Source of the DNA: Candidatus Micrarchaeia archaeon
Lineage (GTDB): Archaea; Micrarchaeota; Micrarchaeia; Micrarchaeales; CABMGC01
Direction of reading: 5' to 3'
Length of the DNA: 4,071 nt
Assembly (NCBI GenBank): GCA_049964835.1
Contig: JBMFWW010000025.1
Span: forward strand, 1 to 4,071
Shown: positions 1 to 3,000 of the stretch, one piece after another
Layout: every line of letters begins with the position of its first letter
How positions within the stretch are numbered: position 1 is the stretch's first letter
Position numbers: made by a program

Positions 1-3000
1 AAAAAAGAATGAACGAGGAAAAAGACGCAGATTATTACTTTGAAAAACTTAAGGAGAAAGGGCTAAACAAGGACAAGTATTATTCACAGACAATGAACTC
101 TATACATAAATACAATGTGTTTCCAAACGAAAAGGTTTTCATGAACTGGCTGATAGACGGAGACTTCATTGATTTAAAAGCCATAAATGACATAATATTT
201 GCAGTCTACTCAAATCCTTCCTCGGAAGAAAATATAATAATAAACAAATACATAAAGGAAGAAAACAAACAGCAGGAAATATTAGGGATTTCGGATGAAT
301 GCACTGAAAATATTCTTTATCTGTTAAAAATACTTACAAACCTAAAGGGTTACAGCGTGGAGGATTTAATAAAAATACACGAAGAGACGATGGAAAGGCT
401 AGATAAGCTTAGAGAAAAGCTAAACAGTATAATAAGCGGTGCGCTTGAATACTTTAAGAAGAAGGAAAAACAAGGACATAAAGAACAATATATAGGCTAA
501 ACAACATAGTGAACTACACCAAGCTTTTGCATGGGGCTTCTCGCTTCAACACCCTGGCTTGCAACAGCTTTCTCTGCCGTAGAGGTCTAAGCTCTGCGAG
601 CATACTGGAAGGTTCCCCATCTCACGAAAGGGGAATTCTCGGCGGATTAGTTAAACTTTCTTTCTATGAGATAGGCTTCTTCGTGTACAATTGTATCATA
701 AAGTTGTTTTTCGTATTCCTTAGCACCTCCATAAAAAGAGGGATTTATGTAAATATTATTCGAATTTGGATTATAATAGCCATATAACTGTAGATATATT
801 AACAAAGTAATAATTTTTAATGTTAAATGCCCCAATCTCTTTAAATTCTGGAAAATCTTCCCTTAAATTATTAATTGAATCTTTCAGCAATGAATATAGG
901 TTACGCCACGACTTCATGCATAGATTCGATTGCAACTTATATATAAAGGTTGAAAAGATAAATATGAAAGACTGCTCCTGTAGTCTAACTTGGATAGAAC
1001 GCAGGCCTGCGGAGCCTGATATCTGGATTCAAATTCCAGCAGGGGCAAATATAATAACAAAAAAACAATAATTATTTGCTAGGGGGCAGTGGTCTAGCTT
1101 GGTTATGACACCAGCCTAGGGCGCTGGTGGTCCTGGGTTCAAATCCCAGCTGCCCCATCCTTTTAAAATGAGATAGTATGTTTATATATCAAAAAAACTT
1201 AAACTGATTTAATTATCCCTAATCATTTTATCTATTTTGGTTTCTAACCATTCCATGTGCCTTTTAGTAAGAATCCTGTTCTGATTTAAAAGGAAATACT
1301 TATCTTTTTCACTTAATTCATTTGAATCTAATATTTTTTCCCATGATCTTCTCTGCATTTCAATAACTTCATTTAGAATTTTTCCTTGAGTTAGCGGATT
1401 TATAATATCCATCATCACGCCTTTTATAGTATTCCATCTCTCTATTACAAAATTATCATATTTTGGCTTAATTTCACTATAAACTTTCTTCCCCTCATTT
1501 GTTATAGAATAAATCTTTAGCTTTCTTTTTCCTTTGCTTTTAACTTTTATCCAGCCTTTATTTACCATCTTTTTAATCAGAGGATAAATCGAACCGGAGC
1601 CTGGCCTCCAAGCCCCTTTTGTCAAAAGGGTTATTTCTTTGATTAAATCGTATCCAGAACAGTCTTTTTCGATTAGCCTTTGCAATACAAAAACCGGTAA
1701 TACTCCTGCTCTCCCGCTGAAACTAAAACTATCTTCCATATATATTAATATACATATCTATATACACATATCAATATTTAAATACTTGAAATTTAGATTT
1801 TAAATGAACATAATAAATCATAAAAAATTGATAGTTCTGGCTTGGATAATAATTATTATAGCGTCTATCCCGGCAGTTTTCAATTATTCCCATTTTATAA
1901 ATTATTCATCAAGCCAACCTCTATTAAAAAACAGCGAATCCGCTAACGCGCAAAATATTCTATCAAGTTATGTACCACAAAATCAAAGCTTAACAGTTTT
2001 TGTAAATATGTCAGTCGGTAATTATTCAAAAAATTTAACAAACCTATTCGTTTCTTCGCTTAAAAACATAAAAGCTATATCTTCAGTTGATTCTCCTTTT
2101 TCAGTTCCTTCTTATTTATCAGATCGATATATAGCACAAAATAACAAAAGTTTTATAATAACTATAAATTTCAATGTAAAAAGCGGATTTCAATATTCAA
2201 ATGGTTCATCTCCTGCCGAAATTTCTTTTACAAAAATAAATAACTTGTCCTCAATTTACTTCGGTAAAAAAGCATATGTAACAGGCAATAGCGCAATTGC
2301 ATATCAAACACAGCAGGTTACTTCTAAATCTGGTTTTGCTTTTGGCCTGATATTCATAGTTCTTTTGATAATAATACTTATAACGCTAGTTTCTTATTGG
2401 TCTTCAATATTAGGATTGCTTTTTGTCGGATTTTCGCTAATTCTAGGCTATGTTTCGATATTTATAGCAGGTTTAATTATAGGCAAGATAAGTTTTATAG
2501 TTAATTATACATTAACTGCAGTAATACTTGGTATAGCTACAGATTACCTGGTATTTATAATAGCAAGATATAGGGAGGAATTAAGACTTGGGAAATCCCC
2601 AGAAGAAGCTTTGAACATATCAATATCCAAGGCAGGCAAAGCAGTATTTATAAGCGGAGTAATAGTTGCTTTTACATTGCTGGTATTCTCATTTATTCCA
2701 AACTTTAGGGACTGGGGAATTGTACTTTTCCAAGCAGTAATATACACTATGCTTTTAAACATCACTCTGCTGCCTATAGGGATTTATTTTTTAAGGAAAA
2801 GAATAATATTAAAGATAGGCCTTAAAAAACTAGTGGCAGATTACCATAAGGACTCTCTTTTCCATAGGACAACTACTTTCTCTTATGAGAGGAGATACAT
2901 AGTAGCAGGCATAATTATTATTCTTGGCGCTATAGCAGGCTATCTATTTTTTACTCTGCCAACAACATATAATTTCAACACAGGGCTCCCGCAAAGCCTT

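Follow-up and report, generated by a model that had tools for sequence, protein, structure and literature searches.

The 4,071-nt contig C25 of a Candidatus Micrarchaeia archaeon assembly (GCA_049964835.1; the whole contig is hereafter referred to as the window) carries at positions 1083-1157 of the forward strand a 75-nt tRNA-Pro gene with anticodon AGG, placing an adenosine at wobble position 34. Sequence comparison identifies it as a canonical and conserved tRNA-Pro gene, neither an error nor a pseudogene. We consider it probable that the gene encodes a functional tRNA-Pro of Parvarchaeota type, derived from and replacing the GGG isoacceptor, and that it decodes with an unmodified A34.

The gene was identified with ARAGORN and matches the Rfam tRNA family (RF00005) across the full model (1-71) as a cloverleaf scoring 63.1 bits (E 1.6e-12), the same figure as in the survey's finding that led to this analysis and above the gathering score of 29 bits. 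The acceptor stem comprises 7 bp, from G1-C72 to G7-C66 (Rfam alignment and sequence; ARAGORN), and ARAGORN assigns 5 bp each to the anticodon stem (CCAGC/GCTGG) and the T stem. The 7-nt anticodon loop at 1116-1122 reads C32 U33 A34 G35 G36 G37 C38 (CUAGGGC), with U33 at 1117, A34 at 1118, G35 G36 at 1119-1120 and G37 at 1121. The discriminator base A73 lies at 1157, and the CCA end is not gene-encoded. The features of archaeal tRNA-Pro pertinent to ProRS and Trm5 are G35 G36, G37, G1-C72 and A73, and the window gene has them all. Of 23 aligned genes, 22 show the full set; the exception is a Micrarchaeota tRNA-Pro(AGG) gene with G73 in place of A73.

The gene is identical over 75/75 positions to two further loci (L013 and L084), and 25 of 25 places retrieved for comparison are called tRNA-Pro(AGG). 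Across 23 distinct AGG sequences, U33 A34 G35 G36 G37 is invariant, 460 of 483 stem positions are paired, and in 14 of the 21 stem pairs both sides have changed in a compensatory manner. Such stem compensation, together with an invariant loop core in diverged copies, indicates that the AGG gene is under selection and is not a pseudogene, which bears out the survey's reading of a genuine, conserved archaeal A34 tRNA-Pro. The closest tRNA-Pro(GGG) genes from other archaea match it at 67/75 positions and share the same 17-nt anticodon arm except at position 34, suggesting that the AGG gene derives from the GGG type. A scan of genome_contigs for this arm, allowing R at position 34, gave at least seven places with A34 among the matches listed, in three archaeal MAGs and four bacterial records. 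Among these listed matches, the arm belongs to a tRNA-Pro(AGG) in all three archaeal MAGs, two of them 75/75 identical to the window gene, and to no tRNA in all four bacterial records. The pattern reported earlier, with archaeal places being tRNA-Pro(AGG) and bacterial ones not, was thus seen again in a smaller sample of at least seven places.

The assembly encodes tRNA-Pro genes with anticodons TGG (C1), CGG (C3) and AGG (C25), and ARAGORN found none with GGG. Pro AGG, TGG and CGG are likewise present, and GGG absent, among 45 tRNA matches in genome G001 of the Parvarchaeota-type order. In 40 species genomes of this order, hand-read pattern matches requiring a GGTTCRAATCC T arm, which miss tRNAs with other T arms or introns, revealed Pro(AGG) in 26 and Pro(GGG) in none, and Leu(AAG) in 39 of 40 and Leu(GAG) in 0 of 40. 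The order therefore combines gene-encoded A34 with absence of the synonymous G34, as expected of a system based on wobble inosine (I34), and the proposal that the A34 tRNA-Pro stands in for a missing G34 isoacceptor holds in G001 and across the order. Rows of the order beginning with TTGGGG and resembling Pro(GGG) turned out to be tRNA-Ser variable arms (five of five, then two more), and an apparent Pro(GGG) on G022:C20 is an intron-bearing tRNA-Met. The same tallies, with the same restriction on T arms and introns, were made for 99 class genomes outside the order: Leu AAG was read in 17, GAG in 25 and both in none, and Pro AGG in 6, GGG in about 13 and both in none. One genome (G130) carries Pro AGG (ARAGORN) together with Leu GAG, and A34 in the Ala box was seen once, in G039. 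The window, G001 and the related Leu(AAG) genome G089 all have tRNA-Arg with the anticodon GCG instead of ACG. Genome sizes in the order range from 0.4 to 0.9 Mb, and most of the MAGs behind these surveys are incomplete.

The survey's finding had confined A34 to an organism co-binned with the Micrarchaeon, on the grounds that Micrarchaeota genomes lack the arm. This is contradicted by a tRNA-Pro(AGG) gene of the Micrarchaeon itself (C6:8037-8123), which a T-loop intron conceals from tRNA finders; in 30 of 30 Micrarchaeota family homologues read, position 34 is A. The Micrarchaeon also has Leu(GAG). T-loop introns evade both ARAGORN and Rfam scans, implying that the tRNA repertoire of such genomes is underestimated.

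Reviews and surveys as recent as 2026 hold that archaea have neither A34 tRNAs nor an A34 deaminase (PMC8007984; PMC8879553; PMC11066159; PMC6000648; bioRxiv 10.64898/2026.05.15.725136). The survey's finding accordingly took an A34 tRNA-Pro to be new for archaea, which it is not: tRNA-Pro(AGG) and tRNA-Leu(AAG), with the G34 forms missing, were described for ARMAN-4 and ARMAN-5 in 2011 (Fujishima et al., 2011; NAR 39:9695, PMC3239211). The core finding of an archaeal A34 tRNA-Pro in this lineage has hence been known since then and was overlooked by later reviews. ARMAN-4/-5 (Ca. Parvarchaeum) are of the same lineage type as the source of the window gene and show the same A34 tRNA pair and the same missing G34 synonyms, making the window gene another copy. 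In a literature search with subscription journals and supplements outside its scope, we found no further account of A34 tRNAs in DPANN archaea or Parvarchaeota. The relevant passage of the 2011 report is a single paragraph on two genomes and does not take up modification or enzymes; the present analysis goes beyond it with the counts of 26 and 39 in 40 genomes, the class genomes, the intron-bearing Pro(AGG) of Micrarchaeota and the negative deaminase searches described below. While the 2011 report established that the rule of no A34 in archaea has exceptions, these counts show the exception to be clade-wide and not sporadic, whole DPANN lineages having swapped G34 for A34 in Pro and/or Leu.

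In the scenario that we favor, a G34-to-A change in an ordinary archaeal tRNA-Pro(GGG) would have produced the AGG gene, which would then have displaced GGG while the UGG and CGG isoacceptors were kept alongside it. By the known identity rules, ProRS would charge tRNA-Pro(AGG) via G35, G36 and A73. CCU would be read through a Watson-Crick A34:U pair, and tRNA-Pro(UGG) and tRNA-Pro(CGG) would serve CCA and CCG, and possibly all four Pro codons. The same G34-to-A34 switch would have given rise to Leu(AAG) throughout the order and in many related lineages, and a separate one would have affected Pro in Micrarchaeota.

Mycoplasma capricolum tRNA-Thr(AGU) is an unmodified A34 tRNA. Like it, and like the Salmonella proL mutant and an E. 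coli AGG tRNA, the archaeal gene places A34 in a four-codon box, and those tRNAs work without inosine. Unmodified tRNA-Pro(AGG), introduced into E. coli as an orthogonal tRNA, decodes CCU about as well as CCC and reads all four Pro codons (PMC11066159), and the Salmonella proL AGG mutant behaves likewise (Chen et al., 2002, as cited in PMC11066159). More generally, ANN tRNAs of four-codon boxes have a neutral or beneficial effect in E. coli (bioRxiv 10.64898/2026.05.15.725136). The lineage shares reduced genomes with the natural cases of unmodified A34, and matches the Mycoplasma type in having A34 in a four-codon box, a reduced genome and no TadA-like gene found. It differs from these precedents, which are laboratory mutants or bacterial and organellar tRNAs, in being natural, clade-wide and archaeal. 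If A34 is indeed unmodified, this would constitute the broadest natural case of A34 decoding, with a bearing on the avoidance of ANN tRNAs elsewhere.

The main alternative, which we regard as rather unlikely, is that A34 is converted to inosine by an unrecognised archaeal enzyme, either outside the TadA/ADAT2 cytidine-deaminase fold or too diverged for detection, so that IGG and IAG anticodons would read codons ending in U, C or A. The mutual exclusion of A34 and G34 genes (26 against 0 and 39 against 0 in the order; never both in the 99 class genomes) speaks for such an enzyme, and the affected boxes, Leu, Pro and once Ala (G039), are ADAT boxes in eukaryotes. Archaea form m1I57 through a deaminase that is not known to have been identified, and an unrecognised archaeal tRNA adenosine deaminase is therefore not far-fetched; should it exist here, a new enzyme would await discovery. 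The likeness to eukaryotic decoding was already remarked upon by Fujishima et al. (2011; PMC3239211). As in eukaryotic cytosolic tRNA-Pro(AGG), which becomes IGG through ADAT2/ADAT3, A34 is gene-encoded, GGG is absent and UGG and CGG are kept. Unlike in eukaryotes, archaeal A34 is limited to Leu and Pro (Ala once) instead of eight boxes, Arg keeps GCG, and the archaeal genes were not found to be accompanied by an ADAT2/TadA-type enzyme. The replacement also resembles that of Lactobacillales tRNA-Leu(AAG) (IAG via TadA), where entire clades are fixed for a G34-to-A change in the CUN box of Leu. Among bacteria with a non-ACG A34 tRNA, 88% encode a TadA homologue according to a preprint (bioRxiv 10.64898/2026.05.15.725136), whereas both TadA and Arg(ACG) are missing from the majority of the archaeal genomes searched.

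Profile searches for deaminases, in which positive controls (E. coli and others) were matched, point away from inosine. Of the 40 genomes in the order, 19 have a match to PF14437 and 21 a match to PF00383. The TadA-sized PF14437 matches in 19 of 40 genomes are ComEB/dCMP deaminases (TIGR02571 134 bits, as compared to 26 for TadA), and the remaining CDA-family matches comprise a cytidine deaminase, a dCMP-like protein and two divergent proteins, each in one or two genomes. A divergent deaminase with an HAE...CxxC motif (L179, L180; PF00383 42-46 bits) was a candidate for the missing enzyme but was set aside, being present in just 2 of the 40 genomes. Neither profile has a match in 19 of the 40 genomes, and no CDA-family match was found at E <= 0.1 in the present assembly (G000, 94.4% complete). 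Across the 40 genomes and G000, no TadA/ADAT-type deaminase was found to co-occur with A34 tRNAs. Two components of an I34 system, a CDA-fold deaminase of TadA/ADAT2 type (order and G000) and Arg(ACG) (window, G001 and G089), were thus not found where they were sought.

Codon use in the Leu box runs in the same direction. Relative to five G34 boxes, the contrast of CUC against CUU ranges from -0.91 to +0.07 (mean about -0.5) in six Leu(AAG) genomes and from -0.15 to +0.68 in five Leu(GAG) genomes, a difference-in-difference with pseudocounts, Arg left out, that is based on crude ORF calls in related genomes. CUC is thus depleted against CUU in Leu(AAG) genomes relative to Leu(GAG) genomes, a weak signal that nonetheless goes against inosine, since I34 pairs well with C. 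G013 (+0.04), one of the two AGG genomes tested, lacks the corresponding signal for Pro. A simple ranking of boxes by C/(C+U) was discarded as evidence, because Leu and Pro rank lowest in G001 but also in the Leu(GAG)-bearing Micrarchaeon.

Apart from these results, an unrecognised enzyme would have to be reconciled with the absence of any candidate deaminase traveling with the A34 tRNAs and with the non-use of Arg(ACG), which is universal as an I34 substrate. The switches in Leu and Pro are, moreover, mutually independent (G130) and occurred in several unrelated tRNA backbones, which is more in keeping with repeated drift under permissive conditions than with the acquisition of one enzyme. 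With no co-occurring CDA-family deaminase and with Arg remaining GCG, comparison of gene content makes unmodified A34 more likely than inosine as the mechanism. A search for sequencing runs covering the whole window, RNA runs included, listed none. Several considerations weigh against unmodified A34: the replacement of G34 by A34 in Leu and Pro boxes matches the I34 pattern of eukaryotes and Lactobacillales; a deaminase of another fold would be compatible with the absence of the CDA family, and most MAGs are incomplete; and the Leu(AAG) genome G089 encodes a TadA-like protein.

A broader version of the inosine proposal, which we judge unlikely, would make A34 tRNAs a standing strategy in at least two DPANN phyla, with A34 converted to inosine by a deaminase of non-CDA fold, so that wobble inosine would occur in all three domains. 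It draws on three observations: Pro(AGG) and Leu(AAG) are present across the Parvarchaeota-type order, many related genomes of Nanoarchaeota type carry Leu(AAG), and intron-bearing Pro(AGG) runs through one Micrarchaeota family.

We deem it quite improbable that a TadA-like enzyme, perhaps of bacterial derivation, makes I34 in tRNA-Leu(AAG) in part of the class, with the Parvarchaeota-type tRNAs being remnants or parallels. This possibility arises from the 150-aa protein encoded at G089:C1:801923-802372. Among proteins of solved structure it comes closest to TadA of Aquifex (1wwr, 108 bits, E 2.6e-30) and of S. aureus, with guanine deaminase scoring lower (78 bits). A 45% identical homologue is present in G073, and both genomes carry Leu(AAG). 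The G089 protein reaches 98.7 bits against the NCBIfam TadA model, below the cut-off of 150, and matches below the cut-off were also obtained in the Haloferax and Methanosarcina control genomes, in whose groups A34 is nearly absent according to the published surveys cited above. In a sample of 111 genomes, 17 from outside the order carry Leu(AAG); of these, only G089 and G073 have a full-length homologue above 50 bits, with a weak match in G071. Homologues also occur in the Leu(GAG) genome G061 and in 12 genomes without an R34 Leu match; searches of G000 and of the order's 40 genomes yielded none. In addition, G089 itself has Arg(GCG), not ACG.

An assembly or sequencing error as the source of A34 is hardly credible, as is a decaying or mobile-element copy that plays no part in translation; as far as sequence comparison reaches, both are refuted: although C25 is short (4 kb) and probably foreign to its bin, and the DNA just 3' of the tRNA varies among genomes, the identical gene occurs in independent MAGs, A34 never varies among 23 diverged sequences whose stems show compensatory changes, many genomes of the order have the Arg-Pro-flank synteny on the chromosome (BLAST, 40 genomes), no G34 copy is present in G001 or the order to do the job instead, and the window has no att-like repeat.

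The origin of the contig can be traced through its other features. A 163-aa ORF at 9-500 on the forward strand, without a Pfam family, is syntenic at the DNA level in Parvarchaeota-type genomes, with 75-86% identity, anchoring C25 in the Parvarchaeota-type order, and window positions 930-1158 are 100% identical to G035:C4 (BLAST). This synteny makes C25 probably foreign to the Micrarchaeon bin, in agreement with the earlier attribution to a Parvarchaeum-like organism; the 4-kb contig would thus stem from an ARMAN-4/-5-like DPANN archaeon of Parvarchaeota type, binned with the Micrarchaeon. A repeat at 508-655 folds no better than shuffled sequences (z = -1.56 on the forward and -0.24 on the reverse strand).

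Upstream of the tRNA-Pro gene, tRNA-Arg(GCG) at 973-1048 on the forward strand (ARAGORN; Rfam 54.3 bits) retains G34 in the Arg four-codon box, and the Arg-Pro tRNA pair is adjacent in L013 and L084 too. The two genes are separated by a 34-nt A/T-rich spacer (1049-1082, forward strand), in which ATATAATAA at 1049-1057, about 26-34 nt 5' of tRNA-Pro, looks by eye like a possible archaeal TATA box. A short T run, TCCTTTTAA, directly follows the gene on the same strand (1158-1166) and may mark the end of transcription. The 3' end of tRNA-Pro borders a variable region (1159-3939) delimited by BLAST against the 40 genomes of the order: homologues of window positions 1158 and 3940 lie just 69 nt apart in G035, and elsewhere in the order the region spans about 0.7-3 kb. 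A repeat search of the window found no duplicated tRNA 3' end flanking this 2.8-kb region. Within it lie genes for a 176-aa PadR-family transcription regulator (1212-1739, reverse strand; PF03551, 52.1 bits) and a 690-aa MMPL-family membrane transporter (1804-3876, forward strand; PF03176, 194.8 bits in two stretches).

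On the forward strand of the window (4071 bp, ~32% G+C; contig C25 of the Micrarchaeon assembly G000, which comprises 46 contigs and 806 kb), ARAGORN identified a tRNA-Arg(GCG) at 973-1048 and a tRNA-Pro(AGG) at 1083-1157, matched by Rfam RF00005 at 54.3 and 63.1 bits, respectively (gathering score 29 bits). The tRNA-Pro folds with a mismatch-free 7-bp acceptor stem (G1-C72) and a CCAGC/GCTGG anticodon stem, and ends in the discriminator A73, with no encoded CCA. Its 7-nt anticodon loop, CUAGGGC (1116-1122), places U33 at 1117, A34 at 1118, G35 and G36 at 1119-1120 and G37 at 1121; because the anticodon stem is fully complementary, no other register is possible. 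ARAGORN, Rfam and the loop as read from the sequence all bear out the survey's finding of a tRNA-Pro with adenosine at the wobble position.

Places with an AGG loop fetched from various genomes were called tRNA-Pro(agg) by ARAGORN in 25 of 25 cases. An alignment of the 23 distinct sequences among these genes reveals stems paired at 460 of 483 positions, two-sided changes at 14 of 21 base pairs, and U33 A34 G35 G36 G37 identical throughout. Loci L013 and L084, from archaeal MAGs, carry a gene identical to that of the window (75/75), likewise with tRNA-Arg(GCG) directly upstream. The paired stems, the invariant A34 and the identical gene in other MAGs rule out a sequencing or assembly error or a pseudogene, and on its sequence the window tRNA-Pro(AGG) is genuine and functional-looking. 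The closest tRNA-Pro(GGG) genes in other archaea, among the matches listed, are 67/75 identical to it and share its 17-nt anticodon arm, position 34 excepted. Retention of the A34 gene across genomes, together with these GGG-type relatives, argues for an ordinary archaeal tRNA-Pro(GGG) lineage in which a G34-to-A change has been fixed.

The other Pro tRNAs of G000 (TGG on contig C1, CGG on C3) are 51-52/75 identical to the C25 gene and differ from it in acceptor stem and T arm. The C25 tRNA-Arg(GCG) duplicates the function of a copy on C2 (52/77 identical) and almost equals one on C37 (72/76). A whole-window BLAST against 40 species genomes of the Parvarchaeota-type (ARMAN-4/-5-like) order, including a MAG labelled Candidatus Parvarchaeota (L026), yielded matches in 39; in many, as in the window, the 5' ORF is followed by the tRNA-Arg/tRNA-Pro pair and then by the 3.9-4.07 kb segment, and positions 930-1158 are 100% identical to genome G035. 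This synteny assigns C25, as far as sequence can, to a Parvarchaeota-type organism and, with the G035 identity, upholds an earlier suspicion of such a source. Duplicate tRNAs occur in G000 (contigs C25, C37, C28 and C30), with Arg GCG present three times, Asp GTC twice (identical) and Asn GTT twice; these duplicates and the synteny of C25 indicate that another organism has contributed a few short contigs to the bin.

Pattern searches of the same order, judged by hand and with no control matches in the Pro, Leu and any-A34 scans, detected tRNA-Pro(AGG) in 26 of the 40 genomes and no Pro(GGG) in any of them. Apparent G34 Pro rows were in fact tRNA-Ser variable arms or, in one case, a tRNA-Met. 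Unexpectedly, tRNA-Leu(AAG) was found in 39/40 genomes, and Leu(GAG) in 0/40. In G001, a member of the order, tRNA-Leu(AAG) (L148, G001:C21:13575-13657) differs from tRNA-Leu(UAG) by 2 nt, one being position 34, and the full tRNA set (45 Rfam hits) confines A34 to Pro and Leu, with G34 used for Thr, Ala, Ser, Gly, Arg and Ile. Scanning the order for any class-I A34 tRNA returned the Pro genes, a single tRNA-Ala(AGC) and nothing else; this Ala gene (L186, G039:C9:9-81) lies at a contig end and would make a third A34 box.

The survey had also concluded that Micrarchaeota lack a tRNA-Pro with A34, because one specific arm was searched for, but the Micrarchaeon has such a gene of its own. Located outside the window on the forward strand (G000:C6:8037-8123), it combines acceptor and T stems of Micrarchaeota type with the loop UUAGGGA, hence A34, and its T loop is interrupted near position 59/60 by an insert of ~13 nt. 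ARAGORN and Rfam do not detect it as it stands; once 11-15 nt are deleted in silico, ARAGORN recognises it as tRNA-Pro(agg). In the Micrarchaeon's own family, BLAST matches to this gene occur in 44 of 46 genomes, and the anticodon is AGG in 30/30 readable loci (29/29 without G532, a genome flagged unpublished), whose T arms carry one or two inserts of variable length. Two Micrarchaeota genomes of another family (G495 and G496) have Pro(AGG) without an intron, and many other Micrarchaeota rows show Pro(GGG) and Leu(GAG), by pattern match only. The family loci and G495/G496 thus overturn the supposed absence, and the sequences argue that at least two DPANN phyla gained, or retained, a tRNA-Pro with A34.

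In a 111-genome sample of the wider class (99 outside the order, tallied by hand), the 99 outside genomes included 17 with Leu AAG, 25 with Leu GAG and none with both; for Pro, AGG occurred in 6, canonical GGG in ~13 and both in none. These counts leave aside a 401-genome search of the class. ARAGORN agreed for 16/16 fetched Leu(AAG) places and for all fetched Pro(AGG) places. The Leu and Pro switches to A34 are independent of each other; G130 pairs Pro AGG with Leu GAG, and several near-complete Leu(AAG) genomes have, by pattern, Pro UGG alone, with or without CGG. Five near-complete small genomes of the class (G089, G143, G362, G158 and G173) show only tRNA-Pro(UGG) by pattern, plus CGG in one, and in these a single tRNA may read the entire Pro box.

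The data establish that the gene exists and is conserved, that A34 has taken the place of G34, and that no known deaminase family was found with it; A34 probably remains an unmodified adenosine. It would then pair with U in Watson-Crick geometry and read CCC via a tolerated A:C mismatch beside two G:C pairs, the remaining Pro codons being covered by the UGG and CGG tRNAs. According to PMC11066159, an unmodified AGG-anticodon tRNA in E. coli reads CCU and CCC about equally, and all four Pro codons, and a Salmonella AGG mutant behaves the same; a preprint (bioRxiv 10.64898/2026.05.15.725136) describes ANN tRNAs in four-codon boxes as neutral or beneficial. Relative to five G34 boxes, CUC is rarer versus CUU in six Leu(AAG) than in five Leu(GAG) genomes, in a crude test on related genomes with rough ORF calls and no clear Pro signal; Leu codon use thus agrees, crudely, with unmodified A34.

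Conversion of A34 to inosine by an unrecognised enzyme appears unlikely. Outside the order, G089 encodes a TadA-like 150-aa protein (L278:1480-1929, minus strand; G089:C1:801923-802372) whose closest relatives of solved structure are TadA proteins of bacteria (1wwr, 108 bits) and which scores 98.7 bits against the TadA model, below the cut-off of 150; G073 has a 45% identical homologue, and both genomes carry Leu(AAG). Across the 111 genomes, TadA-like proteins track neither Leu(AAG) nor A34 overall. The tRNA-Arg of G089 is GCG, and it is likewise Arg(GCG), not ACG, that adjoins the window's Pro gene. Within the order, PF14437 matched in 19 genomes and PF00383 in 21, and a search with both found nothing in 19/40. 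Nineteen matches are 160-aa proteins of ComEB/dCMP-deaminase type (TIGR02571 134-136 bits versus TadA 25-26); the rest comprise a cytidine deaminase, a protein resembling dCMP deaminase and two divergent proteins (1-2 genomes). G000 (94.4% complete) gave no match to PF00383 or TadA (NF008113) at E <= 0.1, while bacterial controls matched. A divergent 170-aa zinc deaminase (PF00383 42-46 bits; HAE ... CxxC with a long insert) occurs in two of the 40 genomes only, G009 and G020 (L179:586-1095 and L180:570-1091), and no NCBIfam model assigns it.

The core finding, archaeal A34 tRNAs, has been in print since 2011, when Fujishima et al. (PMC3239211) described tRNA-Pro(AGG) and tRNA-Leu(AAG), with no G34 counterparts, in ARMAN-4 and ARMAN-5. 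Later surveys and reviews (PMC8007984, PMC8879553, PMC6000648 on 167 genomes, and PMC11066159) describe ANN tRNAs in archaea as absent or nearly so, and the 2026 preprint counts 3 among 10,517 archaeal tRNAs. We found no further papers on A34 tRNAs in DPANN in open-access text. The present analysis adds how widespread such tRNAs are within the order, the class and the Micrarchaeota family, a Micrarchaeota Pro(AGG) whose intron hides it from tRNA finders, the accompanying switch to Leu(AAG) and the negative searches for TadA/ADAT-type enzymes.

Directly after tRNA-Pro lies a variable slot (1159-3939, 2.8 kb), filled in the window by genes for a PadR regulator (1212-1739, minus strand) and an MMPL transporter (1804-3876, plus strand). 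The slot measures 69 nt in G035 and holds 0.7-3 kb of unrelated DNA in other relatives; no att-like repeat was found around it in the window. A relatively G+C-rich 148-nt element at 508-655 matches no Rfam family and folds no better than shuffles (z = -1.56). Parvarchaeota-type genomes contain several copies each, reaching 96% identity by BLAST, and the element may be a small mobile repeat.
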